64,000 nucleotides of DNA. Origin: an uncultured bacterium (GTDB taxonomy: Bacteria > Babelota > Babeliae > Babelales > Babelaceae). The translations under genes were made by a program, and so were the position numbers. The notes beneath the pieces are model-generated. The model worked only from the letters and a program-made list of their open reading frames with translations. It was not told the DNA's origin and did no database searches. Positions 33,565 through 63,586 of the stretch are shown one piece after another. The stretch covers positions 736,001 to 800,000 of the forward strand of contig CAWKFG010000004.1 of assembly GCA_963848965.1 (NCBI GenBank), read 5' to 3'. Within the stretch, counting starts at the first letter, position 1. Each line of letters opens with the position of its first letter.

Positions 33565-34118
33565 TGGCACTACTTACTCGTATAAGAGAGTTTATTAAAG
33601 GTTTAGATGAACGCGATCTCTATCTCTATATGGGAGGTTTTTTTGGAGCATTTCTATTGCTGTTTGGGCTTATTGTATATTTTCATTATAGTAGAATCAG
33701 TCGTTATACAGCAGACCTTAAAAGGCTTGATACGCAACGAACACAAACAAGAAAAATTCTTACAAACTATAAAACAGTAAATTTACAGCAAGCTCGTGTA
33801 GAGGAGATACTTGCAGAAAACAAAAATTTTCGTATTGGCGAAGCATATCAGAGTATTGTTAACAAAGTGAGGCTTGGTACTCATCAACAAGATCAGCCTA
33901 CGCCTACTACAGGTGAAACAGTAAGTGGCAAAACAGAGGTCTTACTTCACACTCATTTAGATCGTATAAGCATGAAGCAACTTACTGATCTTCTTTCAGA
34001 GATTGCAAATGTTACACAAATGTATCCAAAAGAGCTTGTAATTAAAAAAACGCCCAATGCACAAGCTGTGGACGTTGATTTAACTATTGCCACACTTGAG
34101 CCTGCAGCAGCTGAATAA
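33564..34118 (+). CDS. gspM: GspM-like inner-membrane platform protein
   Basis: LDERD motif before a single TM, coiled coil, ferredoxin-like C-terminus (QLTDLLSEI); follows gspL. Confidence 0.65.
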   Translation: MALLTRIREFIKGLDERDLYLYMGGFFGAFLLLFGLIVYFHYSRISRYTADLKRLDTQRTQTRKILTNYKTVNLQQARVEEILAENKNFRIGEAYQSIVNKVRLGTHQQDQPTPTTGETVSGKTEVLLHTHLDRISMKQLTDLLSEIANVTQMYPKELVIKKTPNAQAVDVDLTIATLEPAAAE

Positions 34119-34127
34119 GGGGATTCT

Positions 34128-36575: not shown

Positions 36576-36629
36576 CGTATACTAAAGATACTTGTGGTGA
36601 AGGAGTAGACACCTTCACCACCAACTTTC

Positions 36630-38999
36630 ATGCAAGACCGGGTGACTATTATGCGTATTCTTCTTTTATCTCTGTGCTTTGTGGGTACTCTTTACCCAGT
36701 TGTACAAAATGAAGAGCGCGTTCCGTTTTCATTTCAAAAAAGAAATCTTGTTGATATTATCGACTTTTTGGCAAGCAAAAAGAGCGTAAATATTATTTTG
36801 CCTCAACCTGCCTCTGATGCTGAAGCTCTTAGAAAACAAGTAGTAACGTTCCAACCGCAAGGAATGACTACGCTCCCTATACATGAAGCATGGAGCTTAC
36901 TTACGATGTTCTTAGAGCTCTCTGGTTTTGGCTTGGTACCTAAGCGTTCCAATCTTTTTGCTATCGTACGTACTGGCAAACCGGATGAGGCTGGCATAAG
37001 TAGAGAAACATTACCTTTGTATGTAAATACACCTTCTCATGAGCTCCCTCGCTCTGAGCAACGTATTCGTTATATCTACTACTTACGAAATATTAAAATA
37101 CCTATCGGAGAAACACGAGAAAATCATCCGCTTACTAAGATTTTTAAAGATATGCTATCACCTGGCGCTCCTGTTATTTTTGAACCAAAATCTAACGGTT
37201 TTATTATTGTTGATAGAGCAGATAAAGTTGCTTCTTTGGCGCATCTTATAAAGCATCTTGATGAAACAGGATTTCGCGAAGCAATTGAAATATTACCTCT
37301 TGCAGCAGTACCTGTGCAAGATGTAGTACGAGTATTTGATGCATTAAAGAAAGCCTCCGGAGAGCCCGAACAAGCTCCTTTTCCTTTTATTCGACGAGAA
37401 TCACGTCAAGATATTTCGCGTTTTGCAGCCGATACTGTCATAGCAGGTGACGAGAGAACCAACTCTCTTATTCTTATAGGAAGAAGAAATAATATCGAAC
37501 GTATTAGTGAGTTTGTACGTGAATACATGGACGTTTCTCAAGAATCTGGAAAATCAATTTTGCATGTGTATGATTTACAATATCTTGATGCACAAGCATT
37601 TGCACCAGTTTTACAAAATCTTGTCAGCTATCAAGCAAGTGATACACAAGCAACACAAGTTCCAACTACCGGCCCTGAACGGTTCTTGAGGGGTGTACAA
37701 GTAATAGCTGAAGCAGTTATAGAAGTAAAACCAGAGTTTAGAACTGAAGAAGTTACCATAGAAACAAAAACAGCAGATGAAACTCTAGGAATTGAAGGAA
37801 CTATTAGAACCGGCGGCAACCGCCTTATTGTCGCAGCCTTACATGATGACTGGCTCATTATTAAAGATATGATAGAAAAACTTGATAAGCCGCAACCTCA
37901 GGTTATTCTTGAAGTGCTTATTGCAGATTTTAGTTATACTCGTACAGATCGCATTCGCTCTACCGTACGAATTAAAACTGACTCTCTGCTTACACAAGAA
38001 GGTATCCAATTTTTAGCGTCACACATTACTCCAGTAAACGCAGTCTTAGGCACTACACCTACACAGCTTGCTCAAGATCTTTTAGCAATAGTAGGGCCTA
38101 CCAGCCTGCCTGCACGAACAGACAGGGGATCAGTCCTTTTTTCATTTAACGATCCTCAAACGCCTGGTATCTTTGGATTAATAGAGCTTTTTAAACGACT
38201 TTTAAAAACTAAAATTACTTCTCATCCTTATCTGCTTACTTCTAACAATCAAAAAGGTATCGTTGAAGCTCAAGAGATTCGACGTTTTAGAGGAGACCTT
38301 ATTACTTCAACAGAAGGAACATTTACTATTCCTATAGAAGACGTTACTGCAACACTGACGGTAGAAGTAACTCCTCATATTGCATATACAGATCGAACAC
38401 GCCTTGATATTAAATTTACTGATATCCAGTTTGTTAATAGAGCTCAACTTACAAGACTTACACGAGAACTGCAGACGACTGCAACGCTTTCCTCTGGACA
38501 AATATTGGCAATGGGCGGCATTATACGCGACGACATTATTGACACTGTTACTGCAACACCATTGCTTTCACGTATTCCATTAATCGGTCAGCTTTTCAGA
38601 GGAAATTCGGCAGAGCATACACAGGTTGCTATTGTACTTTTTGTATCTCCTACTATTATTCAACCTGCTTTCAACAAAGCAGCAACTAGTTTTACTCAAG
38701 GAAAAATTGCCCAAGTAAATCGAGATCTGAGTGACCGTATGATAGATTGTAATAAAGATCCTATAACACATATCTTTTTCAAGCGCCAAACACCAGATAG
38801 TTTAGTGCATGACTATCTTGATAAAAGCGCTAATCTTTCCTCTGATCTATCAAAACAGATTCTTCAGTCAAAGCCGCTACCCCGTTTACCAGAGCCAGAA
38901 CCACTTCAGTTTGAGAAACTAAAAGAGCTTCTTGCATGTGAAGATAGTACCTTCTTACGAGTCAAGGAGACTCAAAGTAAGAGAATCTTCAATAGCTAG
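36630..38999 (+). CDS. gspD: Secretin GspD-like #3, close paralog of #2
   Basis: DERTNSLI, LDKPQPQVILEVLI, TPLLSRIPLIGQLFR; long identical stretches with #2 (KRNLVDIIDFLASKK). The true start may be 36651. Confidence 0.85.
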   Translation: MQDRVTIMRILLLSLCFVGTLYPVVQNEERVPFSFQKRNLVDIIDFLASKKSVNIILPQPASDAEALRKQVVTFQPQGMTTLPIHEAWSLLTMFLELSGFGLVPKRSNLFAIVRTGKPDEAGISRETLPLYVNTPSHELPRSEQRIRYIYYLRNIKIPIGETRENHPLTKIFKDMLSPGAPVIFEPKSNGFIIVDRADKVASLAHLIKHLDETGFREAIEILPLAAVPVQDVVRVFDALKKASGEPEQAPFPFIRRESRQDISRFAADTVIAGDERTNSLILIGRRNNIERISEFVREYMDVSQESGKSILHVYDLQYLDAQAFAPVLQNLVSYQASDTQATQVPTTGPERFLRGVQVIAEAVIEVKPEFRTEEVTIETKTADETLGIEGTIRTGGNRLIVAALHDDWLIIKDMIEKLDKPQPQVILEVLIADFSYTRTDRIRSTVRIKTDSLLTQEGIQFLASHITPVNAVLGTTPTQLAQDLLAIVGPTSLPARTDRGSVLFSFNDPQTPGIFGLIELFKRLLKTKITSHPYLLTSNNQKGIVEAQEIRRFRGDLITSTEGTFTIPIEDVTATLTVEVTPHIAYTDRTRLDIKFTDIQFVNRAQLTRLTRELQTTATLSSGQILAMGGIIRDDIIDTVTATPLLSRIPLIGQLFRGNSAEHTQVAIVLFVSPTIIQPAFNKAATSFTQGKIAQVNRDLSDRMIDCNKDPITHIFFKRQTPDSLVHDYLDKSANLSSDLSKQILQSKPLPRLPEPEPLQFEKLKELLACEDSTFLRVKETQSKRIFNS

Positions 39000-47697: not shown

Positions 47698-50600
47698 TCA
47701 TTTTTTATCTGTTTTCTTTTTTATCTCATCTTTTAGAAGCTTGATAACGTGTTTATCCTTCCAAAACTCTGCAAGCTGCATAACATCTTGTCCTGTTGAG
47801 CATCTCAGTGATACATCAAGATGAGGAACTTTTAAAAGCATTTTTATTATCTCTAATTTATTTGCTCTATACTCGCTCATTATACCCTTATTTTTTTGTA
47901 TAAAAGTTTTCTTTGCTTCACTCAATATTTTATGAGGCTCAACTTGGCAAGCACTCATAAGCGGAGTTGCTTTTTGTGCATAGGTCTGAATATTAACATC
48001 TGCCTTATGAGCAAGAAGAAGTGCTGCTATTTCTTTGAGGCCCAGAGAACATGCATAATGTAAAGCAGTACAACCTGTATCATCTTGGCTATCAACAGAG
48101 GCTCCAGAATCAAGCAGAAGCTTAACCACCTCTGGTAAGTCATGTTGTACTGCCCATCCAAGTGCAGTACGTCTTAGATTATCAACTTTATTTACATCAG
48201 CTTTATGTTCAACTAAAAGCCGAACAACTGCTTCTCTTTGTGCCTTTGTAAGCACATCATGAGGAGCTGAACACATACATATGAGTGCTGTTCTTCCATC
48301 TCTTGCACTTATATTAGTATCTGCATTATGTGTAAGAAGAAGTTTCATAATAGAGGAGTGTCCATAACTACTTGCTACCATTAAAGCAGTTAATCCTTCA
48401 TTATTTTGCCTATTAACATCAGCATGATAGTCAAGCAAGAGTTTAACACGTACTTCATTATTATTCTGGCAGCATAGTATAAGAGGTGTGTTACCTTGCT
48501 CATTTGCGCAATTAACATTAGCCTTTTGCTCGAGTAACAACTGAGCTACTTCTTTGTGATTATGCTGACAAGCAAGTAACAAAGGAGTTGTTACTGGAGC
48601 TTCATTTGCAGTAAAGCGTAAAAGCGAAGAAAATAATCCTTGTCGTGGCAACGATCCATTAACACATGCTCCATTTTTAATGAGCATACGCGCAATCTCA
48701 GCGTTACCTGACCTTGCAGCCCCGTTAAGAGCAGTCTGCCCACTAGCAGTTACTGCATTACTATCTGCACCATAGTTTATAAGAAGACGCACCACTTCTG
48801 GATTAGGCTCTGGTAAATGACATGCAATTATAAGAGCAGTAATACCCTCTTTAGCTCTCTGATTTACGTCAGCACCATATTTAAGAAGCGTCTCAATAAT
48901 AGCGCTATCTACTTCTTGTAAAACAGCTTGCAGCAGTAGGGGATTACCAGTTGCTGGATCTACAATCATAGTATTTAAGTTTGGCTTTACTATCCCAAGA
49001 ATTTTCTTTAGATCATCAGCAGTACCGCCATAGAGACAAACAAGAGGTACTAATGCTGGAAGATTACTTTTATCAATACGGAGGAATTTATCATCTTTCA
49101 TAGTTCCATTACGCACAGCCTCTTGCATATGGGGGTCTTGCAATGAATCCTTAATCCTAGACACAAAAGTGAAAAAATGTTGTGCTAAAACGAATAAGAG
49201 GCTATCAGGAAATTCTTCAAAGCCTATGCAAACCTTATAGTTCCCTTCAAATACTGCATAAGTAAATAGTACCGACAAAGTATCCTTATGGTAATGATCT
49301 ACTATATAGTTCAAAGAATCAAATTCGGTATGTTTCATAAGATCTTGTAAAGGAACAGATATCCTCTTTAAAAGGTGTTCAAGAAGTTGTGGAGCACGAT
49401 TCTTTACCAAGGTAGCAAGAACATGCGCTTTAACTTTAAGAGAAAGCGATACAAAATCTATCTCTTTATCAAGAGCATCAAAAAGCGCTTGACTATTAGT
49501 GTGCGGTGCTTGACATACCTTCCCTAATAAAGCAGTTAACTGCTGCATTCCATAAACTTCAAGCAGCTTTTGGATACCGCTCGATATATGCTTTGTTATA
49601 GTAAATGCATTTTTGCTTTCGTGACTGCGCAGAAATACAGAAGCTCCTTTAACAAGAAGCTTTTCTACTAAAGATGCTTTACCACCTTGTATAGCTATTA
49701 TAAGAGCTGTTATACCTTTCTTATCTTGTTGATCTATAATAAGATCCTGCTTTGAAAGGAGTATAGCAACTGCTTCTTCATTATTACGCTCTACAGCAAC
49801 CATAAGCGCGGTTCTACCAAGAGGGTCACTATAGTTACTAGTAGTAGATCTATCTTTTTGAAGAGTCTCAACATCATTGCAATAAGCTGCAATCATTAAA
49901 GGTGAATAGCCCAGTCTTTGTAAGCGCTCTACTTCGCTTTTTTGTTCTTGCAAAAGCGTAGTACGCTGTTTTTCCTGTTTTGCATATTCTTCTTGGGTTA
50001 TATGCGATTGTAATTCTTTTAAAGCATTGCTATCAGCAGGTGCATAATTTATAGCAGTTTTACCAGAATTATCTTGCTCATGAAGTTGTAGACCTTTTTT
50101 ATAAAGGTAAGTAATAAGTGATGCATGATCTGATAGAGCTGCTATCATAAGAGCATTTTGACCTTTACCATTTTTGTATGGTAAAACAGAAGGATAGAAA
50201 GTAAGAAGCTGCTCAATGACAGGAAGTACATTATATCGTATTGCCTCTAAGAAGAGCTCTCCAGCCTGAGTCTGAGAAAAATTGATAACACGCTTTTCTA
50301 TAAAAGATAAAAAATATCCAAGAGAGCCTGCGTTTTGCAAAGCTTTTGTCAACGCATAGGGGTAATTAATACCGATGAATGCAAGAAGATTAGTATAATT
50401 TCCTCGTTGTTCTTTATACTGAACTTCGAGGAGTTTTAAGAACCATTCTTCAATAAGCTCTCTTTTTAGAGAGTGATGTTGTATGAGAGTTGAAAATATG
50501 CCTATATTTCTAGTAAATGCTAACGTAAGTGCTTCATGATATACTTCAGGAGCTCTCTGTAATGGTGCTTTTAACAACTGTTCTACAACAGTAGCTTTAC

Positions 50601-52155
50601 TCTCTTTTACCGCAAATAAGAATATTTTATTGAGTATTTTTTCTTCTAAAGAGTTCAATGCTTGTAACGATGAACGAGAGATAGTTCCTTTAAGAATTTC
50701 TTCTTTAAGAGTTTGAAGAAATACTTCTTGCTTTTTTTGTTGCTCTTTATGCTCTGCTAATGCTTTCTTTTCTTTCTCCTTCTCATGTAAAAGAGAAACT
50801 ATTTCTTGAATATTAAGCTGAGTAGCAAGCATATATGCTGTTTCTTCACGTTGGTTTCTTATTGTACAATAATCTGCTTGATGGTCTAATAAGCATTTTG
50901 CAAGCGAAACATTATGATGTGCAAGAGCATGCATAAGTGCAGTATATCCATCACTGTCTTGCGCATTTAACAAACTGCCCTTTTTTAACGTAGCTTCAAT
51001 AAAGGCTTTGCAAGCTTCTAGTTCTTCTTTTGCTAAAGTATGATGCTTAATTGCGTATATAAGAGGGGTACAACCATAATTATCAGAAGTGTTTACATCA
51101 GCACCAAGATAAAGCAACAGCTCTGCGATATCGTACAGCTTTCTTTGTAATGCTCTCATTAAAGGAGTTTCGCCCTTCTTATTCGCTTTATTAATGACAG
51201 CTTGATGTGCAAGCCCAAGAACGGCTTCATACACTTCAGAATCGATAGCATAATGTAACGCCGTATTTCCGACATTGTCTTGTTCCTCTAACAAAATCCC
51301 TCGCTCTAAAAATACATTAATAAGATCACATCTACCTGCTTGAGCTGCAAGCATTAAAGCAGTTTGACCTTTCTCATTTTTTACCTCTATAGCAGACTCT
51401 TCAAGAAGATCTATAACCGAGTAGAGTGAACAATCCTGTTGTGAAAGTATTTTAAATAGTTCTGTAGGCGTTTCTTGCTTATTCTCTCTTACGGTAAGAT
51501 TCTCAGCTCTTTGCTGTACGGCTATCGTTTCTAATGATCCCAAAAGTACTTTTTTTGTTTCTTTTACAATAGGATGAATGGTAAGAATATGAGTACGCAA
51601 GGACTTGTGAAGAACAAGTTTAAGAGGAACTCGTGCAAGATCGTACAGAGCTTTCATAGTAATAGAATAAGTATGTTCTGCTTGCGGTAACGGCATACTT
51701 TCATAAACGCTTTGTTCAGCTAATTCTTGTATATAGGTAGCAACAGCTTTTAAGCTCCAGGTAGAAGGGAAAAAGCTTTTTGGTTGAGCATATACCTTCC
51801 CTTGGTAGATTATATATCCAGTATGAAACGTAGAGATATCGTTGTACGTAAAAATCCAGAGATGTTTATTTACCTTAATAAGAGTTCCATTCAGTACCTC
51901 TTCTATCTTTGGGTTAGTATGTCCATAATAGTGAAATCCTGATATTTTATCATCTTTTTCAAAAGATACTCTTTGATATGTCGTAATATGTTTAAGCACA
52001 TCTTTTAGGGGTAAAATATAGTGATGGCCTCCTAAAGAAAGAGAAATGAGAGAGCTAAAGACATCTGAGCTCTTTTCAGGAGCTTGCATAGTATAGGTGC
52101 TAACACCTATACCTAAAGTGAGTAGAATAAGACAAAAAAAGCGTTGTATATGCAT
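47698..52155 (-). CDS. Large exported ankyrin-repeat protein with N-terminal EndoU-like nuclease domain
   Basis: Many ankyrin repeats in several blocks; N-terminal LKHI...SGFHY...KSFFPSTWS pattern. Confidence 0.85.
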   Translation of the reverse strand: MHIQRFFCLILLTLGIGVSTYTMQAPEKSSDVFSSLISLSLGGHHYILPLKDVLKHITTYQRVSFEKDDKISGFHYYGHTNPKIEEVLNGTLIKVNKHLWIFTYNDISTFHTGYIIYQGKVYAQPKSFFPSTWSLKAVATYIQELAEQSVYESMPLPQAEHTYSITMKALYDLARVPLKLVLHKSLRTHILTIHPIVKETKKVLLGSLETIAVQQRAENLTVRENKQETPTELFKILSQQDCSLYSVIDLLEESAIEVKNEKGQTALMLAAQAGRCDLINVFLERGILLEEQDNVGNTALHYAIDSEVYEAVLGLAHQAVINKANKKGETPLMRALQRKLYDIAELLLYLGADVNTSDNYGCTPLIYAIKHHTLAKEELEACKAFIEATLKKGSLLNAQDSDGYTALMHALAHHNVSLAKCLLDHQADYCTIRNQREETAYMLATQLNIQEIVSLLHEKEKEKKALAEHKEQQKKQEVFLQTLKEEILKGTISRSSLQALNSLEEKILNKIFLFAVKESKATVVEQLLKAPLQRAPEVYHEALTLAFTRNIGIFSTLIQHHSLKRELIEEWFLKLLEVQYKEQRGNYTNLLAFIGINYPYALTKALQNAGSLGYFLSFIEKRVINFSQTQAGELFLEAIRYNVLPVIEQLLTFYPSVLPYKNGKGQNALMIAALSDHASLITYLYKKGLQLHEQDNSGKTAINYAPADSNALKELQSHITQEEYAKQEKQRTTLLQEQKSEVERLQRLGYSPLMIAAYCNDVETLQKDRSTTSNYSDPLGRTALMVAVERNNEEAVAILLSKQDLIIDQQDKKGITALIIAIQGGKASLVEKLLVKGASVFLRSHESKNAFTITKHISSGIQKLLEVYGMQQLTALLGKVCQAPHTNSQALFDALDKEIDFVSLSLKVKAHVLATLVKNRAPQLLEHLLKRISVPLQDLMKHTEFDSLNYIVDHYHKDTLSVLFTYAVFEGNYKVCIGFEEFPDSLLFVLAQHFFTFVSRIKDSLQDPHMQEAVRNGTMKDDKFLRIDKSNLPALVPLVCLYGGTADDLKKILGIVKPNLNTMIVDPATGNPLLLQAVLQEVDSAIIETLLKYGADVNQRAKEGITALIIACHLPEPNPEVVRLLINYGADSNAVTASGQTALNGAARSGNAEIARMLIKNGACVNGSLPRQGLFSSLLRFTANEAPVTTPLLLACQHNHKEVAQLLLEQKANVNCANEQGNTPLILCCQNNNEVRVKLLLDYHADVNRQNNEGLTALMVASSYGHSSIMKLLLTHNADTNISARDGRTALICMCSAPHDVLTKAQREAVVRLLVEHKADVNKVDNLRRTALGWAVQHDLPEVVKLLLDSGASVDSQDDTGCTALHYACSLGLKEIAALLLAHKADVNIQTYAQKATPLMSACQVEPHKILSEAKKTFIQKNKGIMSEYRANKLEIIKMLLKVPHLDVSLRCSTGQDVMQLAEFWKDKHVIKLLKDEIKKKTDKK

Positions 52156-52409: not shown

Positions 52410-54086
52410 TTATCCTTGGCTACCAAATTTAGGGTCCATCCAAGCTGTATTCCAATAGTGTGCTCCAATAGCTTGAGCTGGTATTTTACCATCTGGAGTT
52501 ACCACTTGTTTTTTTGGATATTCATCTGCCCGTGCAGGATAAATAGTTTGAGGAGGTAAAACTATATCTTGCGTATCCTTACCTGCTGCTAATGCAAATG
52601 CTATAGTAAACATAAAAGGACCTGTTTCAACAATAGTTTTAAACCCATTATTAGGTGCAGATTTTATGTAATCTGGAGCATTCTCGCTCAAGTTACGTTT
52701 GATCATTTCTAATGCCTTATTAACAACAGGATGATCAGGACAAGCTCCAATAAAGGCATTACATAAGTAGACCGACATAGGCTCTAGACCTACAATCATG
52801 TCATACGCCTTGCTATAGGGTAATAATGATTGGAATAGTTCATAATCGGTATCCAAATAATAGCCACCAAAAAGACGAAGCAACTCAAGACGAATAATAT
52901 CAGTAGCTTTACCGAATTTCTTCTCTTTAATTGCAGATTTATACAAGTCACCTGTTACAAATTTTGTTGTATCAAGGTCTTTCAATTCACGTAAGATAAT
53001 AGTTGGATGATTTTCAAGCAATTGTGCAAGCTTAGGTAACTTTTCTTTGCTTTCTATCCAGAAATAGTGAGTCCATCCCTCTGAAGGCATATTATGCTCA
53101 ATACTATTTTCAAGCCATTGAATATACTGAGGTGAAGGATCTTTTGGATTATCATCTGATGTTACCCAGATTTTATGAGTAACAAGAGGCGTTCTATATA
53201 CGGTAGAATCAAGCAAGTCTGGATCTTGCTTTAAAAGTGACGCAATGTTATTACGCGCATATAAAGTTTGTCTTTGTCGATCTATTTCAGCAAGACTGAG
53301 TCCCTCTTTGTGTCCCACAGAATCTGTGTAGTCATAGCTTCCATTAAATTCACGCCTAAATGCTTTTTCTTCATCTGAAATAGTAGGATCATTCAATTGT
53401 TCATCATTAAACTTCTTAGAAGTAAAATCAAAGTGATGATATTGATGAAGGAAATGACGATCTTGTACCATTTCAATATTTACTTGAAGATAGCTATCTT
53501 CAGTAAATTTAGGATTTAAAAAGAAGAGAGGATTATCGTCTACTGGCTTGATAGAACGAACAATAATACCATTCTGCTTTTCAAACACATACAACTCATA
53601 AGGCTTTATAGTAACTTCATCGCTCTTAAAGAAATCAGGTTTATCTTTAGCCTCATACTTTACTTTTAATGTAATTGATTCACTTGTTTTATTTTCAATA
53701 ACAAAACCATCTTCAATACGCAATTTCTTGATAAACGAATTAAAGTCTCTTCGAGCATCATAAAGAGCCTTTTGTGAGAGAATCATTTTCTTAAAGAGAT
53801 TTTTTTCAGATTCCTTCACATGCTTTAATTGAGGTTTTTTAGCTCGTATAAGCTCAAGAAAACTCTTAAGCTTTCCTTGCTTCTTTCTTTTAGATAGTTT
53901 CTTTTTAAAGTTTTTCTCGTGCTTTAACCGAAACCTTTCAGCTTTTGCACGCCTAAAAAAGCTCTTATGCTTTCCTTTCTTCTTTAGACCATGAGCCGGA
54001 GGTGTTTTATGTTTAATAGCTGCATGAGCTTCACACCCTCCAAATGTTAATAAAAGCAAATAGAATATTAAAAAAGATTTATTCAT
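52410..54086 (-). CDS. Exported DXD-motif glycosyltransferase (GT32/GT44-like) with Lys-rich N-terminus
   Basis: TP..THKIWV, TDIIRLELLRLFGGYYLDTD, NAFIGACPDHP, ETGP, HYWNTAW. Confidence 0.85.
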   Translation of the reverse strand: MNKSFLIFYLLLLTFGGCEAHAAIKHKTPPAHGLKKKGKHKSFFRRAKAERFRLKHEKNFKKKLSKRKKQGKLKSFLELIRAKKPQLKHVKESEKNLFKKMILSQKALYDARRDFNSFIKKLRIEDGFVIENKTSESITLKVKYEAKDKPDFFKSDEVTIKPYELYVFEKQNGIIVRSIKPVDDNPLFFLNPKFTEDSYLQVNIEMVQDRHFLHQYHHFDFTSKKFNDEQLNDPTISDEEKAFRREFNGSYDYTDSVGHKEGLSLAEIDRQRQTLYARNNIASLLKQDPDLLDSTVYRTPLVTHKIWVTSDDNPKDPSPQYIQWLENSIEHNMPSEGWTHYFWIESKEKLPKLAQLLENHPTIILRELKDLDTTKFVTGDLYKSAIKEKKFGKATDIIRLELLRLFGGYYLDTDYELFQSLLPYSKAYDMIVGLEPMSVYLCNAFIGACPDHPVVNKALEMIKRNLSENAPDYIKSAPNNGFKTIVETGPFMFTIAFALAAGKDTQDIVLPPQTIYPARADEYPKKQVVTPDGKIPAQAIGAHYWNTAWMDPKFGSQG

Positions 54087-55275: not shown

Positions 55276-56019
55276 ATGAAACAGATACTACTTGCAATTC
55301 AGAATATTTCTAAAGCATATAATCATACTCTTGCAGTCAAAGATGTATCGCTTACTATTTACGAAGGTGAGATACTTGGTCTACTAGGCTCTAATGGAGC
55401 AGGAAAGACAACGCTTTCTTCACTTATTGCAACATTACATCCACCTACAAGCGGCACTATTTTGTATAAGGGCACTTCTATTTATAAAAATGTTCCTGCG
55501 TATCGAATGAATATTGGTTTCTGTCCACAAAAACCAAACTTTGATTCTACAATGACAGTAAAAGAAAATCTTCTTTTTGCAGGAAGATACTTTGGCCTCT
55601 CTTACGAGCAAACAGAGCAAAGAGTAGCATTTCTTATACAAGAGTTTGGTCTTAGTGCACATGCAGATAAGCAACCGGATGTGCTTTCAGGAGGATATAA
55701 ACAGCGGCTTCTTATTGCTAGAGCGCTGGTTCATAATCCTACTATTCTCATTCTTGATGAGCCTACTGTTGCTTTAGATCCACATGTACGCAGACAAGTA
55801 TGGAATTCTATTAAGCATCTTAAAATGCTTGGTATCACTGTTATTTTAACTACTCATTATTTAGATGAAGCAGAGTACCTTGCAGATAGGGTATGTATTA
55901 TGGATAAAGGGGTAATTAAAGTGATTGATACTCCTGAAAACTTGCTTTCTACTTATGGTAAAAAAACGTTAGAAGAAGTATTTATTGATTATATGGAAAA
56001 ACAAGAGGAACTCTCATGA
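55276..56019 (+). CDS. ABC-2-type exporter ATP-binding subunit
   Basis: GSNGAGKTT, LSGGYKQRLLIARAL, LILDEPT, LTTHYLDEAE. Confidence 0.92.
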   Translation: MKQILLAIQNISKAYNHTLAVKDVSLTIYEGEILGLLGSNGAGKTTLSSLIATLHPPTSGTILYKGTSIYKNVPAYRMNIGFCPQKPNFDSTMTVKENLLFAGRYFGLSYEQTEQRVAFLIQEFGLSAHADKQPDVLSGGYKQRLLIARALVHNPTILILDEPTVALDPHVRRQVWNSIKHLKMLGITVILTTHYLDEAEYLADRVCIMDKGVIKVIDTPENLLSTYGKKTLEEVFIDYMEKQEELS

Positions 56020-56801
56020 ATACAGTACAACCATTGAAAACCTTTAGATTTTTATTATGGCGCGATTTACGCCTATTAAGATCTGGTTTTATACACTATC
56101 TCATTGACACGCTTATATGGACAGGCTCTAATGTCATCATCAGTGGTTATTTATTACCTTTGCTTGGCATGGGCCGTTCATATGGTAATTTTATGCTTGT
56201 AGGATCAACTATTAGCATGTGCTTTTTTTATGCAATAAATAAAAGCCATGATCTTGTAGCTGATTTTGAAGGAAGTAAGAATATTACCTATGATCTTGTA
56301 CTTCCTATTGCTTCATGGGCAGTGTTCTTTAAAATAGCCCTGAGCTTTGCACTACAAGCAGCTCTTGTTAATATCTTAGCAATTCCTTTAGGCAAAATAC
56401 TTCTAGGAGAATCTCTGCATATGAGCTTATTTGCATGCAGTAAAGTGATAATGGTATTCAGCCTCATTGCCATTTTCCTTGGCTTCTTTGGTCTCTGGGT
56501 TGCAAGTTGGGTAAAGCATCCATCATTGTATCCTCATGTATGGATGCGCTTTATATTGCCTTTATGGGCTTTTGGCGGCTATCAGTTCTCTTGGTATACA
56601 CTCAAAGGTGCTTATCCTTTGATAGCGTATGCTAGCTTACTAAATCCAATGGTTTACACATTTGAAAGCCTCCGAGCAGTACTATTAGGACAAGAGGAAT
56701 ATATTCCATTAGCAGTATGTATTTTTATGCTTACTATGTTTACTCTCCTGCTTTGGGTTCATACATTGTATCTTTTAAAGAAACGGCTTGACTATATCTA
56801 A
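56016..56801 (+). CDS. ABC-2-type exporter permease
   Basis: About six TM segments, NPMVYTFESLR motif; ATGA overlap with the ATPase. Confidence 0.88.
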   Translation: MNTVQPLKTFRFLLWRDLRLLRSGFIHYLIDTLIWTGSNVIISGYLLPLLGMGRSYGNFMLVGSTISMCFFYAINKSHDLVADFEGSKNITYDLVLPIASWAVFFKIALSFALQAALVNILAIPLGKILLGESLHMSLFACSKVIMVFSLIAIFLGFFGLWVASWVKHPSLYPHVWMRFILPLWAFGGYQFSWYTLKGAYPLIAYASLLNPMVYTFESLRAVLLGQEEYIPLAVCIFMLTMFTLLLWVHTLYLLKKRLDYI

Positions 56802-56803
56802 CT

Positions 56804-56833
56804 ACAGGGTAGGATCTTCCTACCCTGTTTTTT
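56804..56833 (+). terminator. Rho-independent terminator after the ABC exporter
   Basis: ACAGGGTAGGA-TCT-TCCTACCCTGT followed by TTTTT. Confidence 0.85.
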
Positions 56834-56926: not shown

Positions 56927-57682
56927 ATGTTTTTTTCTTTAAAACAAGGTATATACGCAGCTCAAAGTGATCTTAATGTTATACTTCTTGATGCAAACAG
57001 AGATAAGTACTTTAGTATAAGTTCTGAAGTAGGAACCATTTTATTAAGAATTCTTAATACTGAATTTGATTATAGCAATGGAATGTATCGTGCCCTTTCT
57101 GTTCCTGAGGAAGAAAACAGTTTTGATTACTGGATACAGTATTTTATTGAATCAGAGTTTATTGAGCCTCGAGAAACAAAAAGAGATACCATACACTTTA
57201 CTCGTTCTTTAGTATCTGGAGGTCTTACAGGATATCAATGGGATAGAAAGGATCGATTAGTATCTGTTTTTAAAATTTCTCCTGTACTTATTGTACAACT
57301 TCTTTGGATACTTATGAAAGTAAACTTTGCTTTAAAAAGAAAGGGTATACAAGGTGTTCTCAATATGCTAAGAAAGCTTAGCATAAAGCATAAATCTCAA
57401 GAAGTTCATCCTTCACAGATAGAATACTTATCAAACGCTCTTGATGCAGCATGCGCTTTATATCCAAAAAAAATATATTGTCTAGGCTGGGCTACAACGT
57501 TTACTTTAGTGGCACTTAAAAAAGGTTGGAGATGTAACTTGGTAATTGGAGTACAATCACCACCTTTTTATGCTCATGCATGGGCTGAAATAAACAACCA
57601 CGTAGTTAATGATGATAAAATTATCCAAGAACGGCTTGTTGTACTTCTTAAAGAGCCTTTTACAGATAATGTACCTTACTAG
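56927..57682 (+). CDS. Lasso peptide B protein (fused RRE and transglutaminase-like leader peptidase)
   Basis: N-terminal RRE-like VILLD...DKYFSI; C-terminal YCL...LVIGVQSPPFYAHAWAE...VVND with the Cys-His-Asp triad. Confidence 0.92.
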   Translation: MFFSLKQGIYAAQSDLNVILLDANRDKYFSISSEVGTILLRILNTEFDYSNGMYRALSVPEEENSFDYWIQYFIESEFIEPRETKRDTIHFTRSLVSGGLTGYQWDRKDRLVSVFKISPVLIVQLLWILMKVNFALKRKGIQGVLNMLRKLSIKHKSQEVHPSQIEYLSNALDAACALYPKKIYCLGWATTFTLVALKKGWRCNLVIGVQSPPFYAHAWAEINNHVVNDDKIIQERLVVLLKEPFTDNVPY

Positions 57683-57705: not shown

Positions 57706-59493
57706 ATGCCTCTTATTGCAGGAGCATTTTTAAATCATCATAGTAACAGCTCTTCTCTTGTTCATACATTACTTACTTGTGCAGAATCTAAAATTACTCT
57801 TGATAAGCTTGTATTCACTTATACAAACCAAAGAATAGTTTTAGTAGCAGGTAAAAAAATGCATGAATCATCTGCTGAAAAAGTAATAAATATAGGCCAG
57901 GGATCTGGTATACTGCTTGGACGACTTTTTCAAAAAGGTACTAGTACATTAGTACAACACTTAGAAGAAGAGGAACTAGAGAAGATAAGAGAATCGCAAG
58001 GTAGATGGTTAAGTGAGCGGTACTGGGGCAGGTATCTTGTTATACTGCTAGATGAAGAGAGTATAACAATTTATAGAGACCCACTAGGAGGTATACCGCT
58101 CTTTATTACACAGACAGCTCAAGGAGTAGTGTTCTCTACAGAGCTCTCAATGCTCTATGATGCATTAGAAGAAAAGCCAGTACTTGATTGGACTTACTTT
58201 ACTTCCTATGTAGCAGCGTCATTTACGCTTACTACTGCAACGCCATTTAAAGGAATAGAAGAGGTATTTCCAGGCTCTTATGTAAGCATATCAGCAGAAG
58301 GGTATAAAACAGGTCTTTTTTGGGATCCAACACAGATAGATGTAAAAGAGGAGAAAGAGCTAGAGGAGCAAATACTTGAGACATTTTCAAGCTGTATAAA
58401 GGCATGGACACAAGAAACGGAAGGCATAGCACTAGAGCTATCAGGAGGTCTTGATTCTTCTGCTCTTCTTATACTATTAAAACAGGTAGCTCCTCGTATG
58501 AATATCACTTGTTTTAACTATTTTCATCCTCGTGTAGCTTCTTCTGATGAAAGAAACTATGCAGCGCATGTTGCTCAAGAGTGCAATGTAGAGCTTTATT
58601 GTATAGATCAAAGCCAAGTTTTACCTTTAAGCAGCAATTCAATTCATAAAACAAATAAACCAAGTTCATTTTTACTGCAGGAAGCTCTTAATAGAGAAAT
58701 TACTTCTTTGGTATCTAAAAAAGGTACTTATGAATTTATGAGCGGACAAGGGGGTGATCATCTTTTTCTTGCTCCTCCACTCGTTGAATCTCTGGCAGAT
58801 TATTTTCTTGATAACGGTATAAGAGGAATAAGCTCTAAACTTCATGAGATGTGTGCCTATTATCGAACACCATTCTTAAGCACAGTTGGCCAATCATTAA
58901 ACGCTTTAATTTCTTATTACAGAAGTAAAATAGATCGTATAATTGCAAACTCAGAGATAGAAGACTGGATGACTCCCTCTTTTTTAAGGAGTATAGATCA
59001 AACTATTTATCAACCGCCCTTTTGGAGACAATTAAAGCAAGTGTACCCAGCTAAAGCACAGCATATATACGATATGTACAGCGCACTCCTTTATACAGAT
59101 CAAGGGCATAGAATGGAAAGCAGACCTGTAATTAATCCGTTTTTATCGCAGCCATTTGTAGAACTTGCACTTTCTATTCCTACCTATCAGCTGTATAAAC
59201 AAGAGCATGACCGGTTTCCTTTTAGAAATGCAATAAGTAGAATAAGCACAGCACCAAGTATATGGCGTAAAGATAAAGGAGAAACTACAGGCATTAGCGT
59301 CTTTGCTCTCAATACAAACTATAAGTATATTTGTAAATTGTTGCTCGACGGTAAATTTGTGCAGCATAATCTTATTGATAAAGATAAACTCTATGACCAT
59401 ATCAACCATTGTAAAAATGGTAAATCGTTTAACTTATGGCCTCTTATGAATCTTATATCTGTCGAGCTCTGGTTTGATTCATGGAACCTATAA
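57706..59493 (+). CDS. Lasso peptide cyclase C1 (asparagine synthetase-like)
   Basis: LELSGGLDSS, SGQGGDHLF, NPFLSQPFVELALSIP, WRKDKG; no N-terminal glutaminase Cys; follows the B gene. Confidence 0.92.
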   Translation: MPLIAGAFLNHHSNSSSLVHTLLTCAESKITLDKLVFTYTNQRIVLVAGKKMHESSAEKVINIGQGSGILLGRLFQKGTSTLVQHLEEEELEKIRESQGRWLSERYWGRYLVILLDEESITIYRDPLGGIPLFITQTAQGVVFSTELSMLYDALEEKPVLDWTYFTSYVAASFTLTTATPFKGIEEVFPGSYVSISAEGYKTGLFWDPTQIDVKEEKELEEQILETFSSCIKAWTQETEGIALELSGGLDSSALLILLKQVAPRMNITCFNYFHPRVASSDERNYAAHVAQECNVELYCIDQSQVLPLSSNSIHKTNKPSSFLLQEALNREITSLVSKKGTYEFMSGQGGDHLFLAPPLVESLADYFLDNGIRGISSKLHEMCAYYRTPFLSTVGQSLNALISYYRSKIDRIIANSEIEDWMTPSFLRSIDQTIYQPPFWRQLKQVYPAKAQHIYDMYSALLYTDQGHRMESRPVINPFLSQPFVELALSIPTYQLYKQEHDRFPFRNAISRISTAPSIWRKDKGETTGISVFALNTNYKYICKLLLDGKFVQHNLIDKDKLYDHINHCKNGKSFNLWPLMNLISVELWFDSWNL

Positions 59494-59494
59494 A

Positions 59495-59650
59495 CTACAT
59501 GCCCTTTGGTTTAAAATAACCATAATTTTCTGCACATGGTGTTGCTTTACCTAAGGTATATTCTGAAACTTTTGCAAGCTCTGTGATAAGGGCAGCTTTC
59601 TGATCTTCCATAATCTTTACAATTGGCTTTTGCTTTGTATTTTCTTCCAT
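59495..59650 (-). CDS. Lasso precursor A1: MEENTKQKPIVKIMEDQKAALITELAKVSEYTL-GKATPCAENYGYFKPKGM
   Basis: Manual translation (51 aa, absent from ORF track); GAGGAGG RBS; Thr(-2), Gly1, Glu8. Confidence 0.9.
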   Translation of the reverse strand: MEENTKQKPIVKIMEDQKAALITELAKVSEYTLGKATPCAENYGYFKPKGM

Positions 59651-59680
59651 AGTTTTTCCTCCTCTTATAGAATTACTTGT

Positions 59681-59711
59681 AGCAGAAGTAGATTTTATAT
59701 CTACTTCTGCT
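59681..59711. promoter_or_regulatory. 13-bp perfect hairpin between precursors A2 and A1
   Basis: AGCAGAAGTAGAT-TTTAT-ATCTACTTCTGCT. Confidence 0.7.
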
Positions 59712-59716
59712 TACAT

Positions 59717-59863
59717 TTACCGTATTTGTCTTCCTATATTTTCTGCAAGTCTACCACTTTTTCCTAAGGTAGTTTTTGAAACAGTGCCTATCTCTGTAAT
59801 AAGAGTAACTTTAGAAGATACCTTTTGCTTTTTACGAAAGCACCAATTACTAAGTATTTTCAT
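59717..59863 (-). CDS. Lasso precursor A2: MKILSNWCFRKKQKVSSKVTLITEIGTVSKTTL-GKSGRLAENIGRQIR
   Basis: 48 aa from the ATG at 59863 with GAGGAG RBS (track ORF is over-extended); Gly(-8), Thr(-2), Gly1, Glu8. Confidence 0.9.
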   Translation of the reverse strand: MKILSNWCFRKKQKVSSKVTLITEIGTVSKTTLGKSGRLAENIGRQIR

Positions 59864-59961
59864 AAGACCTTCTCCTCTATTTATAAAGTGAAACAATGTA
59901 TAGCACATGCAAAAACCATATATACTAATCTTGTACATCAAACTTTTGTAGCTTTTGCTTA

Positions 59962-60132
59962 CTAATTATCTTTTAATGGAGGCCAATAAGTGCGTTTAAA
60001 AGTTTTTTGAAGGCTCTCTAAGTATTTTCCGCCTCTGCCCAGAGTAATTTTTGAAACAGCTCCTAACATTTCAATAGGAGACACCTTATAGGAGGCATCT
60101 TTTTTATTAATGAATATAATAGATCTTTTCAT
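59962..60132 (-). CDS. Lasso precursor A3: MKRSIIFINKKDASYKVSPIEMLGAVSKITL-GRGGKYLESLQKTFKRTYWPPLKDN
   Basis: Manual translation (56 aa); AAGGAG RBS; Tyr(-17), Gly(-8), Thr(-2), Gly1, Glu8. Confidence 0.9.
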   Translation of the reverse strand: MKRSIIFINKKDASYKVSPIEMLGAVSKITLGRGGKYLESLQKTFKRTYWPPLKDN

Positions 60133-60160
60133 AGGTGTTTCTCCTTACTCTAAACAATAT

Positions 60161-60337
60161 TTATACAGGGTTCCAAGGATGTTTCTTAAAGGTCCTTCGA
60201 AGACTTTCTAAATATTTTCCTCCTCTACCTAAAGTAAGCCTTGAAACGTTTCCTAACATTTCAACAGCAGATACTTTGTAAGAAGCACTTTTCTGTTGAA
60301 CGCAACCTGTTGTGTGTAAATGTTTTTTCTTTTGCAT
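60161..60337 (-). CDS. Lasso precursor A4: MQKKKHLHTTGCVQQKSASYKVSAVEMLGNVSRLTL-GRGGKYLESLRRTFKKHPWNPV
   Basis: Manual translation (58 aa); AAGGAGGT RBS just after the C2 stop; Tyr(-17), Gly(-8), Thr(-2), Gly1, Glu8. Confidence 0.9.
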   Translation of the reverse strand: MQKKKHLHTTGCVQQKSASYKVSAVEMLGNVSRLTLGRGGKYLESLRRTFKKHPWNPV

Positions 60338-60354
60338 GACACCTCCTTACGTTA

Positions 60355-62112
60355 TTAAGAGATATTCCATGTTTTAAACCATAGTTCTGTAGAAAGTAAA
60401 TTTATTAATGGCCCTATATTTACTGGGCTACTATGACACCATTGATTAATATACGTATAAAGTTTATCTTTATCAATGAGATTATGTTGCACAAATTTAC
60501 CTTCAAACAAGAGCTCACATATCTGCTTATACTGAACATTAAAAGCATAGATAGTAACTGCAGTTGTATCCCCTTTATCTTTACGCCATATATTTGGTGC
60601 CTTACTTATCCTACTTATCGCATTTCTAAAAGGGAATCGGTCATGTTCCTGCTTATACAGCTGATAGGTAGGAATAGAAAGCGCAAGCTCAACAAGCGGT
60701 TGAAATAAAAATGGGTTAATTACCGATTTACCTGGTATTCTTTGTACCTTATCCACAGTAACAAGTGCATCATAGAGCGAAACTATATGAGAAAGCTTAC
60801 CTGGATATATTTTAGTATTATCGTGCAAAAAAAGCGTATCATTCTTTACTTGCTCCATAAAAGCGCTATTCATCCAATGTTCACGCTCTAAAGATGCAAG
60901 AAGATGCCTTTTATGTGAAGTATAGTAACGCATTATCTCCATACCTGTATCTTTTATAACTTGTATAAGCGACATTCGATAATAAGCTGCTATCTCAGAT
61001 ATTTTAGAGCTTATTCCTCGTGTACCGCGAATAAAAAAATAATCTGCAAGAGATTCAACAAGTGGAGGTGCAAGAAAAAGGTGGTCCCCTCCATGCCCAC
61101 TCATAAATTCACAGTTCTTCTGAGCAACTAAAGCAGCAGTATGCTTACACATTGCTTCTTCTAATAACAAAGGATGAGGCTTACTAGCTCTTAATTGAGG
61201 AAGCATACTCAATGATATATGCTCACTCAAATCTATACAATGCAGTTCTGCATCACATTCCTGAGCAACTTGAGTTGCATAGTTTCTTTCATCAGAAGAA
61301 GCTACTCGAGAGTGAAAGTAATTAAAGCACGTGATAGGTAGAGTAGGAGCTACCTGTTTGAGCAGTATAAGAAGAGCAGAAGAATCAAGACCTCCTGATA
61401 GCTCTAGTGCTATGCCTTCTGTTTCCTGTGTCCATGCCTTTATACAGCTTGAAAACGTCTCAAGTATTTGCTCCTCTAGTTCTTTCTCCTCTTTTACACC
61501 TATCTGTGTTGGATCCCAAAAAAGACCTGTTTTATACCCTTCTGCTGTTATGCTTACATAAGAGCCTGGAAATACCTCTTCTATTCCTTTAAACGGAGTT
61601 ACTGTAGTAAGAAAATCTGCTGCTACATAGGAGGTAAAGTAAGTCCAGTCAAGTACTGGCTTTTCTTCTAATGCATCATAGAGCATTGAGAGCTCTGTAG
61701 AGAACACTACTCCTTGAGCTGTCTGTGTAATAAAGAGTGGTATACCTCCTAGTGGGTCTCTATAAATTGTTATACTCTCTTCATCTAGCAGTATAACAAG
61801 ATACCTGCCCCAGTACCGCTCACTTAACCATCTACCTTGCGATTCTCTTATCTTTTCTAGCTCCCATTCTTCAAGATTTTCTTTAAGAACTGAGCTTCCC
61901 TTTTCAAAAAGTCGGCCTATAAGCATTCCAGTAGTATGGGTAAAGACCTTGAGCTTTTCGGCAGAAGATTCTTCATTTCTCACCCCACTTTGTATGATAA
62001 AGTTATAGTTTTCTACCGTTGCCCACTGCTTACAAAGCTCTTTAGTAACCGGGTTAATTGACAATGTACGAGCAGTTTTTTCCTTTAAAAAAGCCCCTAG
62101 TAATAAAGGCAT
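60355..62112 (-). CDS. Lasso peptide cyclase C2
   Basis: LELSGGLDSS, SGHGGDHLF, NPFLFQPLVELALSIP, WRKDKG; paralog of C1, directly upstream of A4. Confidence 0.92.
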   Translation of the reverse strand: MPLLLGAFLKEKTARTLSINPVTKELCKQWATVENYNFIIQSGVRNEESSAEKLKVFTHTTGMLIGRLFEKGSSVLKENLEEWELEKIRESQGRWLSERYWGRYLVILLDEESITIYRDPLGGIPLFITQTAQGVVFSTELSMLYDALEEKPVLDWTYFTSYVAADFLTTVTPFKGIEEVFPGSYVSITAEGYKTGLFWDPTQIGVKEEKELEEQILETFSSCIKAWTQETEGIALELSGGLDSSALLILLKQVAPTLPITCFNYFHSRVASSDERNYATQVAQECDAELHCIDLSEHISLSMLPQLRASKPHPLLLEEAMCKHTAALVAQKNCEFMSGHGGDHLFLAPPLVESLADYFFIRGTRGISSKISEIAAYYRMSLIQVIKDTGMEIMRYYTSHKRHLLASLEREHWMNSAFMEQVKNDTLFLHDNTKIYPGKLSHIVSLYDALVTVDKVQRIPGKSVINPFLFQPLVELALSIPTYQLYKQEHDRFPFRNAISRISKAPNIWRKDKGDTTAVTIYAFNVQYKQICELLFEGKFVQHNLIDKDKLYTYINQWCHSSPVNIGPLINLLSTELWFKTWNIS

Positions 62113-62155: not shown

Positions 62156-63586
62156 CTACAGTAAGTTATATCTTACAAGAGCAAGATCAAACCACTTACC
62201 ATTAAAAGAGTCACCCGCAACTATCACTTTTCCATTCTCTTGCAGTGCTATAGCAAAACTTCTATCATCACCCCCTCTTAAGGAGGTAACCAGTATGCCA
62301 TCGTTGGAAGTACCAAAAGTAGTATCCAGCATCCCTTCAGATGTATAGCGCACAAGGGTAAACTTTTTATGCTTATCCCACTGCACTACCCCGGTAATGA
62401 GTATTTTACCATCTTTTTGTAATACTACACTTTTAGCAAAAGCATTATCAGTACCTAATGGAGTTAAAACTATACCAGTACGACTTTTTCCAAATGTAGT
62501 ATCGGGTGACCCATCTACATTGTACCTCACAAGAAGAAATTCCGCTTTCTGGCTAGTTGTGTTTTTTGCAGAACCTATGGCAAGAATTTTGCCATCTGGC
62601 TGTATTATAACGTCTACAAAAAAATTACATTCTCTACTTGCGGATGTTATGACCATTCCACTTTTATCAGGAGCAAAAGAAGTATCAAGATTTCCATGAG
62701 AATCATATTGTACAATCGCACAATCTGAACTTGCTGACGCAGCCAGAGCAAGATCCCCAAATGAGGTACAATCATCGCTTAACCCTACAACTACGATCTT
62801 CCCACCTTGTTGTAAAGCTGCTGCTAGAGCCTCATCATCTTCCTTACCTATAACTCTGGGCTTAGGTCTCTTGTTTACCTGCAAGATAGTCTTTACATGC
62901 CCCTTTGTTCCAAAAGATATATCAGGAGTTCCATCACTATTATAGCGACTTACAAAGAAGCTACAGTTTATAGCATCCAATGACTCTGGACCTTTATTAA
63001 GGCCTTGGTTTCCTACAGCAATAATTTTTCCATCGTCTTGTAGCACAACTTTAAAATAGTTAGACCAGCTCTTTCCTAGTTTTTCTTTTATTACTCCACC
63101 GCAGCCAAAGGAGCTATCTAAGTTTCCATTTGGATGTAATCTCAAAAGGCCTGCATTACCAAAACCATCATCTCGGTCAAATATTCTTATTACTGCAATA
63201 ATTTTACCATCTTTTTGTACAAGACAATCAATACCAAAAAGCTGAGTATTACTTTGACCAAGAGTTATCAACATTTTACCTCCTAAACCAAAAGAGGTAT
63301 CTAGAGTCCCATTACTATTATAGCGCGCTAAAGCACAAGCAACCCCAGTTGGTTTATTAGTAAAATCCTTATAGGCATCCCCTATTACAAGTATTTTGCC
63401 ATCTTGCTGCACTCTTACATGAATTGAAGGTACTATTTTGTTCACAGTTCCTGAATTCATACCAAAACTGGTCGTAACGATTCCATTATCACCAAAGGTT
63501 TTATCTAAAAGACTCTTAGTTTCCTCCATAGCCTTTATGTATAATGAAATAAAGAGAGAAAGTACAAAAAGCTGTCGTATATTCAT
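62156..63586 (-). CDS. Exported delta-60-repeat (beta-propeller-like) protein
   Basis: Repeated Q.DGKI....G....LARY...G.LDTSFG units; signal peptide. Confidence 0.85.
   Translation of the reverse strand: MNIRQLFVLSLFISLYIKAMEETKSLLDKTFGDNGIVTTSFGMNSGTVNKIVPSIHVRVQQDGKILVIGDAYKDFTNKPTGVACALARYNSNGTLDTSFGLGGKMLITLGQSNTQLFGIDCLVQKDGKIIAVIRIFDRDDGFGNAGLLRLHPNGNLDSSFGCGGVIKEKLGKSWSNYFKVVLQDDGKIIAVGNQGLNKGPESLDAINCSFFVSRYNSDGTPDISFGTKGHVKTILQVNKRPKPRVIGKEDDEALAAALQQGGKIVVVGLSDDCTSFGDLALAASASSDCAIVQYDSHGNLDTSFAPDKSGMVITSASRECNFFVDVIIQPDGKILAIGSAKNTTSQKAEFLLVRYNVDGSPDTTFGKSRTGIVLTPLGTDNAFAKSVVLQKDGKILITGVVQWDKHKKFTLVRYTSEGMLDTTFGTSNDGILVTSLRGGDDRSFAIALQENGKVIVAGDSFNGKWFDLALVRYNLL

Follow-up and report, generated by a model that had tools for sequence, protein, structure and literature searches.

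Lasso-peptide precursors share a standard anatomy, with a Thr at position -2 of the leader and a core closed into a G1-E8 isopeptide ring. In two-component lanthipeptides such as haloduracin, each LanA has its dedicated LanM, and this pairing has been shown by experiment. Caulosegnin-type clusters combine several precursors with one B protein and one cyclase for all of them. Neither lasso clusters as such, nor several precursors in one cluster, nor B proteins of the fused kind are new. The mcjABCD-type scheme is described in passages of a June 2026 review (PMC13352647), and parts of another paper (PMC10306099) present ProcM and the prochlorosins as a case of one tolerant cyclase of RiPPs (peptides made by the ribosome and modified after translation) that acts on many substrates. 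Here we describe a stretch of 64,000 nucleotides (the window; contig CAWKFG010000004.1 of assembly GCA_963848965.1, positions 736,001 to 800,000) with a predicted lasso-peptide biosynthetic gene cluster of a Dependentiae (Babeliales) bacterium. Its four precursor genes, A1 to A4 (59495-60337, - strand), are flanked by two convergent and diverged cyclase genes, C1 and C2, which would share a single B protein and may each prefer one pair of precursors.

Compared with the microcin J25 type, this cluster has what looks like the same fused B, the same Asn-synthetase-like C, the leader Thr at -2 and a predicted G1-E8 isopeptide ring. It differs in possessing two C and four A genes, in placing the precursors downstream of a cyclase and on the strand opposite to B, and in having a split ABC-2 pair instead of a McjD-like fused ABC exporter, which is missing from the window. 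On the + strand the order is ABC ATPase, ABC-2 permease, a hairpin, B (56927-57682) and C1 (57706-59493, 595 aa); on the - strand, C2 (60355-62112, 585 aa) is followed by A4, A3, A2 and A1. A preliminary description of the locus had counted a single B, and a hidden Markov model (HMM) search of the window agrees, with one B homologue and two cyclases. Both C1 and C2 match Pfam Asn_synthase (76.1 and 72.7 bits; cutoff 21), to which C1 adds a GATase_7 match. Both start with MPL(I/L) (MPLIAG in C1) and lack the glutaminase Cys after Met, and the invariant SGGLDS loop is kept in the two proteins. They score 84.9 and 81.9 bits with the NCBIfam lasso-cyclase model NF033535, far under its 525-bit cutoff, and 118.9 and 108.4 bits with NF033561, where the cutoff of 300 is not reached. 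The predicted structure of C2 (predicted local distance difference test, pLDDT, 89.6; predicted template modelling score, pTM, 0.91) has two domains, and the PDB entries closest to it in fold are TsnB9, beta-lactam synthetase and AsnB (E 4e-20 to 6e-16); none of the chains listed carries a description as lasso cyclase. A sequence search of the PDB with C1 returned TsnB9 (7ylz, E 3.9e-5) as the sole match and no lasso cyclase.

The precursors are four short open reading frames (ORFs), arranged head to tail, which fill 59495-60337 exactly, and each ATG is preceded by a Shine-Dalgarno-like sequence (AGGAGG, GGAGAAGG, AAGGAG or AAGGAGG). The start of A2 was taken as the ATG behind GGAGAAGG, giving 48 aa, the ORF listing beginning farther upstream at a TTG. 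A1 (59495-59650, 51 aa) has the core GKATPCAENYGYFKPKGM, with a tail of 10 residues beyond the ring, and A2 (59717-59863) has the core GKSGRLAENIGRQIR, with a tail of 7. The tails are of 17 residues in A3 (59962-60132, 56 aa; core GRGGKYLESLQKTFKRTYWPPLKDN) and of 14 in A4 (60161-60337, 58 aa; core GRGGKYLESLRRTFKKHPWNPV). All four show a penultimate leader Thr, a core start within the set G/A/S/C and an Asp or Glu at core positions 7-9. The pattern [AGK]..[ST]..T.G.{6,7}[DE] has five matches when the 64 kb are translated in all six frames, four of which are A1-A4; the fifth lies inside a 796-aa secretin frame. A3, the one precursor used as a query against a collection of 5.8 billion proteins, found only itself.

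Two precursor subfamilies had been proposed, and their motifs are present letter for letter: A1 and A2 have in common LITE(L/I)xxVSxxTL followed by GKxxxxAEN, and A3 and A4 have ASYKVSxxEMLGxVSxxTL followed by GRGGKYLESL. A3 and A4 are 76% identical over 107 nt, and A1 and A2 are 39% identical as proteins; over the first eight core residues, the mean identity among the four cores is 3.7/8. Across the alignment of A1-A4, the invariant columns are V, S, T and L of the leader VSxxTL, together with G1 and E8. The proposal that one B handles two leader types stands as regards the one B, but 'two leader types' was overstated, because the four leaders end in one common recognition core, xLGxVSxxTL, with Thr at -2.

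The two cyclases are identical at 384 of 595 positions (65%), and this identity is very unevenly spread. That they are nearly identical in a central block and diverged at the N-terminus and in much of the C-terminal half, as was first noticed, agrees with the identity windows. In windows of 20 codons, nucleotide identity is 95-100% across C1 codons ~91-160 and ~181-250, 20-57% within codons 1-90, and 35-60% across codons 301-340 and 381-460. The shared block takes in the last part of the N-terminal domain together with the ATP-binding loop SGGLDS, and is interrupted by a divergent island at codons 161-180. It lies at 57964-58608 (+) in C1 and at 61231-61872 (-) in C2, and is made up of two inverted repeats, I3 (254 nt, 97% identity, 7 mismatches; 57964-58217 in C1) and I1 (381 nt, 90%, 37 mismatches; 58228-58608 in C1), whose partner arms lie in C2. 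The youngest stretches of the block are codons 88-160, with a synonymous divergence (dS) of 0.063, and codons 181-250, with a dS of 0.092; they show 3.0 and 4.0 synonymous and 2.0 and 2.0 non-synonymous differences; elsewhere it goes from 0.52 to saturation. This drop in dS, together with the 97% and 90% inverted repeats, indicates that about 160 central codons were recently homogenised by gene conversion between the inverted paralogues, which are 2.6-3.4 kb apart.

The divergent parts of the pair are residues 1-87, 293-339 and 373-467 (C1 numbering), plus the small island 161-180. Identity between C1 and C2 is 30% over residues 1-75 (family-wide median 24%, 90th percentile 36%), 37% over 293-339 (24% and 35%) and 33% over 373-467 (30% and 44%). 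In these three fast-evolving segments, C1 differs from C2 to about the same extent as cyclases from unrelated clusters differ from each other.

The history of the pair is illuminated by P0002, a metagenomic protein that is an orthologue of C1, colinear with it and 73% identical over the full length. P0002 resembles C1 and not C2 in every divergent segment, and is ~70-80% identical to both within the block; C1 therefore represents the conservative lineage. A tree built from 296 columns that lie outside the similar blocks places C2 as sister to the pair of C1 and P0002 (SH-aLRT 98), on a branch of length 0.72, that of C1 being 0.21. The tree came from a quick IQ-TREE run (LG+G4) on 34 rows, consisting of 30 close relatives and 4 distant outgroup rows, taken from 120 listed matches. 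C2 is, to judge from this tree, an old paralogue of C1. The search with C1 returned nothing at 43-65% identity besides C2 itself. With C2 as the query against 1.84 billion representatives, the best non-self match was 42% identical and no orthologue was found, in a library clustered at 50%, where a close relative of C2 could sit in the cluster of C2 itself. Both cyclases look intact at the sequence level. Among 101 columns conserved in at least 80% of 27 relatives, C1 keeps 97 and C2 keeps 93, and among the 33 of these within the divergent segments the numbers are 32 and 29; the 37 columns that are invariant across 30 aligned sequences are, by definition, kept in both. C2 lacks G572 and W578 (C1 numbering), which are near the C terminus and 96% and 93% conserved.

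The cysteine protease of B2 type is defined by a Cys-His-Asp triad within a transglutaminase-like fold. In the B protein of the window, the corresponding residues C185, H217 and D229 do not vary among the 16 B proteins that were aligned, residues 121-240 match NCBIfam NF033537 (lasso_biosyn_B2; 67.7 bits, cutoff 33), and Pfam Transglut_core3 is matched at 1.2e-16. No Pfam PqqD match was obtained at E <= 0.01. In the predicted structure (pLDDT 85.1), residues 2-82 form strands plus helices, and the top PDB fold match of this N-terminal part is TbiB1, a lasso RRE protein crystallised with its leader (5v1v_A), a weak match (E 0.03, prob 0.99, TMt 0.58). The lasso B1 6jx3_B ranks 12 in the same search (prob 0.96), in which nothing reaches E <= 0.001. 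Together with the NCBIfam and Pfam matches, the model portrays B as a putative N-terminal RiPP recognition element (RRE)-like domain fused to a Cys-His-Asp transglutaminase-like protease. When B was docked with C2, the predicted complex scored 0.49, the best of three controls 0.00, with a contact agreement between runs of at least 77% and a partner pLDDT of at least 80. Of 157 solved complexes, 116 attain the mark applied here, as do 2 of 215 mismatched pairs, and scores of 0.60 or less at the mark come from just 18 of the 157 solved complexes and from both mismatches that passed; custom alignments were used in our run, so these counts are only approximate for it. The predicted complex lends weak support to an association of B with C2. 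A B2-C complex is known for fuscanodin, according to passages of the same review (PMC13352647), which makes the prior for a B-C2 complex favourable.

By analogy with systems of the microcin J25 and fusilassin types, B would bind the conserved leader motif and cut after TL, the cyclase would adenylate the side chain of E8 and join it to the amine of G1 round a pre-threaded tail, and the transporter would export the products. In the reading that we favour, both cyclases would work with the single B, and C1 and C2 would differ in substrate preference through their divergent segments, the conservative C1 favouring the short-tailed A1 and A2, which are typical of the clade, and the derived C2 favouring the unusually long-tailed A3 and A4. 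The preference would probably be a bias and not a strict exclusivity. We give this arrangement, with its C1-A1/A2 and C2-A3/A4 bias, about an even chance of being right. The long retention of an intact and diverged C2 in a small genome favours different roles for the two enzymes over plain redundancy. A stricter form, in which C1 threads A1/A2 and C2 threads A3/A4, each rejecting the other pair, and in which the segments ~1-87, 293-339 and 373-467 and the island 161-180 would be a substrate-folding surface kept by selection, again with one B, appears unlikely. The logic of such a pairing is that of haloduracin, in which paralogous enzymes are each matched to one precursor family, but enzyme class and chemistry differ, and in the window the pairing is only inferred. 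ProcM and its prochlorosins offer the counter-model, although ProcM is a lanthipeptide synthetase and not an Asn-synthetase-like lasso cyclase. Relative to the caulosegnin type, the point of difference is the second, diverged cyclase.

The related loci allow this reading to be weighed. Eighty related loci were compared, and the closest 17 (L001-L017) include the nearest cyclases in 185,579 species genomes, which are in metagenome-assembled genomes (MAGs) of Babeliales or TM6 and are 32-36% identical, and B proteins that are 34-42% identical to that of the window. In these Babeliales/Dependentiae loci the leader likewise ends in LGxxSxxTL before a G, the E is found at core position 8 or 9, and there are often several precursors. 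They differ in having one cyclase, mostly a fused ABC protein (of ~575-667 aa, nearby in 12 of 17) and mostly shorter tails than A3 and A4. Their precursors are candidates from a motif scan; in 45 of 47 ORF-terminal candidate cores the tail after the ring is of 6-15 residues (median 10), the remaining two, 33 and 48, being scan artefacts. The tails of A1 and A2 are typical of these relatives, and those of A4 and A3 are at or past the upper end.

Several of these observations count against the need for a division of labour between C1 and C2. Two full-length cyclase ORFs are found in none of the 80 related loci, L019 having a partial second cyclase match at the locus edge, and exactly one cyclase is present in 17 of the 17 closest. 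Nevertheless, 12 of these 17 have 2-10 candidate cores that are as dissimilar as A1/A2 are from A3/A4, with a mean identity over the first eight core residues of 1.8-4.0/8 in most of the closest multi-core loci. L006 and L016 combine 8- and 9-residue rings (five of nine and three of eight residues in L006), and L005 has one candidate with a 15-residue tail alongside tails of 8 and 10; the number of cyclases does not track the number of precursor subfamilies across related clusters. All four cores of the window require the same G1-E8 ring. Caulosegnin enzymes form both 8- and 9-residue rings, as stated in passages of PMC13352647, and FusC is reported, in part of a 2025 paper, to cyclise millions of variants. 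The dN/dS of the divergent segments, about 0.5-0.7, is unreliable because dS is saturated, and is given no weight here. An older conversion could have contributed to the placement of C2 as sister, and the losses of G572 and W578 could reflect decay instead of specialisation. Finally, the assignment of C1 to A1/A2 and of C2 to A3/A4 is a guess, made solely by matching typical with typical and by adjacency.

Alternatively, the two copies might be redundant, both processing all four precursors about equally, with the second serving dosage or robustness, or being the leftover of two clusters fused tail to tail with the loss of one B and some precursors. Relatives that handle 2-10 diverse cores with one cyclase, the single ring type and leader motif of A1-A4, the high tolerance that the caulosegnin and FusC accounts describe for lasso cyclases, and the gene conversion, by which C1 and C2 are still exchanging sequence, all speak for redundancy in one form or the other. 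We nonetheless hold it to be doubtful, since a spare 1.76-kb gene is unlikely to stay intact through synonymous saturation, least of all in a small genome (872,875-bp contig), C2 retains 93 of the 101 conserved columns, and in three segments the two proteins are as diverged as unrelated cyclases are. The long branch of C2, the loss of W578 and G572, its departure from 8 of the 101 conserved columns (C1 departs from 4), and the lack of an orthologue in the search would also suit a copy, most likely C2, that no longer cyclises, and that is either decaying or acting as a non-catalytic partner (a scaffold, a precursor chaperone or half of a C1-C2 heteromer). This is improbable, however, given that C2 has a full-length frame, keeps the SGGLDS loop and all 37 invariant columns, gives a confident two-domain model, has block differences that are mostly synonymous, and is transcribed together with the precursors, on the same strand and directly upstream of A4.

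Two further explanations concern the block itself. The source is probably metagenome-assembled, as the relatives are MAGs, and identity falls sharply at the block edges, so that reads of one paralogue might have been copied onto the other in assembly or polishing. The mismatches that remain (7 over 254 nt, 37 over 381 nt), the divergent island at codons 161-180, the preservation of both reading frames and the colinearity of C1 across the block with the independent orthologue P0002 make such an artefact very improbable. The inverted blocks could also be recombination sites, at which the segment 58.5-61.3 kb flips, moving the precursors behind B-C and swapping the C-terminal halves of the cyclases: inverted repeats do flank this segment, and the flipped order, B-C-A-A-A-A, is that of L001, in which the precursors lie behind B-C. 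However, P0002, which comes from a different organism, runs colinear with C1 to either side of the block, which means that C1 as it now stands did not arise as a recent chimera; moreover, a second isomer was not observed, and 54-64 kb contains no gene for a recombinase. We regard inversion as highly improbable, and differing substrate preference of two functional cyclases as the better account of the locus.

In a full-text literature search, no report of a two-cyclase lasso cluster was found, the matches being Streptomyces genome descriptions, as judged from the listings, and no paper on lasso clusters in Dependentiae/Babeliales was among the matches listed, which included one on bacteriocins of the fish gut and one in which, by title and abstract, TM6 seems to denote a receptor helix. 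Passages of the June 2026 review (PMC13352647) report no experimental structure of the lasso cyclase class, and the rules of lasso-cyclase substrate compatibility are called poorly understood in part of the 2025 paper. Substrate choice and pre-folding by these enzymes being poorly understood, the locus offers a natural cyclase pair in one cluster, with near-identical catalytic centres, three sharply divergent segments, two precursor subfamilies and a single protease. Its main value is that of a ready-made design for specificity experiments. If strict pairing were true, the divergent segments would be the first specificity determinants of a lasso cyclase to be delimited by nature. The locus also shows that Dependentiae living as obligate intracellular bacteria with small genomes invest in lasso clusters with several precursors, and that, within a pair of RiPP enzymes, gene conversion can make one part uniform and leave others distinct.

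The membership of the transporter genes in the cluster is uncertain. The ATPase (55276-56019, +) matches Pfam ABC_tran at 4.1e-38, its top NCBIfam match, drrA-like, being under cutoff, and its stop overlaps by 4 nt with the ABC-2 type permease (56016-56801, +), which matches Pfam ABC2_membrane at E 2.9e-4 (20.9 bits, under the 26.9 cutoff). A terminator-like hairpin just 3' of the permease (56804-56828, +; 11 pairs, then a T run) separates this pair from B-C1. Homologues of the two genes occur within 10 kb of B-C in only two of the 17 related loci, L015 and L016. By its family matches, the pair is a possible exporter or immunity system.

The stop codons of C1 (+) and A1 (-) are convergent, with 1 nt between them (59491-59497), and a hairpin scan found no terminator-like structure between these stops on either strand. 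Transcription from both sides would collide there, or would give RNA antisense to the precursors and to the 3' end of C1. A hairpin between A2 and A1 (59678-59715, -; 13 pairs, -21.9 kcal/mol, z -5.66) begins 2 nt past the A2 stop, ahead of the A1 ribosome-binding site, and lacks a U tract; none of 200 shuffles folds equally well. It is possibly a partial terminator or a transcript-stabilising element, and may set the ratio of A4/A3/A2 to A1 transcript or stabilise the upstream message. A promoter-like site, TTGATA-17-TATATT (10/12), is present at 60448-60476 (-), within the 3' end of C2 and upstream of A4, and could drive the precursors independently of C2. The promoter scan yielded 25 sites against a shuffle mean of 32.6, that is, fewer than the shuffles, so this site is a lead only. 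The Rfam search detected no RNA family in the window.

Among the related loci, some precursors appear to be of a multi-core kind. In L002 (2858-4110, +), ORFs of 128, 111 and 148 aa, directly after B-C, have 3, 3 and 4 leader-core cassettes (10 cores), and in L010 (11665-12281, +), ORFs of 75 and 113 aa have 2 and 3. As the internal cassettes are without Met, core release would also need a cut on the C-terminal side. We know of no description of multi-core lasso-peptide precursors, and no paper on them was among the matches listed, by title and abstract, in the full-text literature search. L011 (CAVQHD010000001.1) belongs to a MAG labelled Rhabdochlamydiaceae and L012 to one labelled Phycisphaerales, and both carry cyclases of the clade, a hint either of binning errors or that this type of cluster has been passed between bacteria associated with protists.

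The region has a G+C content of 30-40%, and the window also codes for ankyrin-repeat proteins, three secretin paralogues, ClpB and enolase. Of the 120 enolase matches listed, 4 carry a taxon name, and each of these names is Dependentiae, Babeliaceae or Babela, in keeping with the host given above. The secretins are GspD-like (1142, 815 and 789 aa) and stand in one row with GspC-like and PilM-like genes (28526-38999, +), three being uncommonly many for a small genome. A 558-aa protein (52410-54086, -) has a glycosyltransferase region with a DXD motif (Gly_transf_sug, 9.2e-6; weak match to the TcdA_TcdB catalytic domain, 0.0036), and adjoins a 1485-aa ankyrin-repeat protein (47698-52155, -); from their domains, both look like candidate host-directed effectors of an intracellular bacterium. 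On the same strand as C2 and 43 nt upstream of it lies the gene of a 476-aa DUF5122 beta-propeller repeat protein with a hydrophobic N terminus (62156-63586, -; Pfam 3.1e-42), whose internal repeats of ~180-190 nt are the direct-repeat families D1 and D2.

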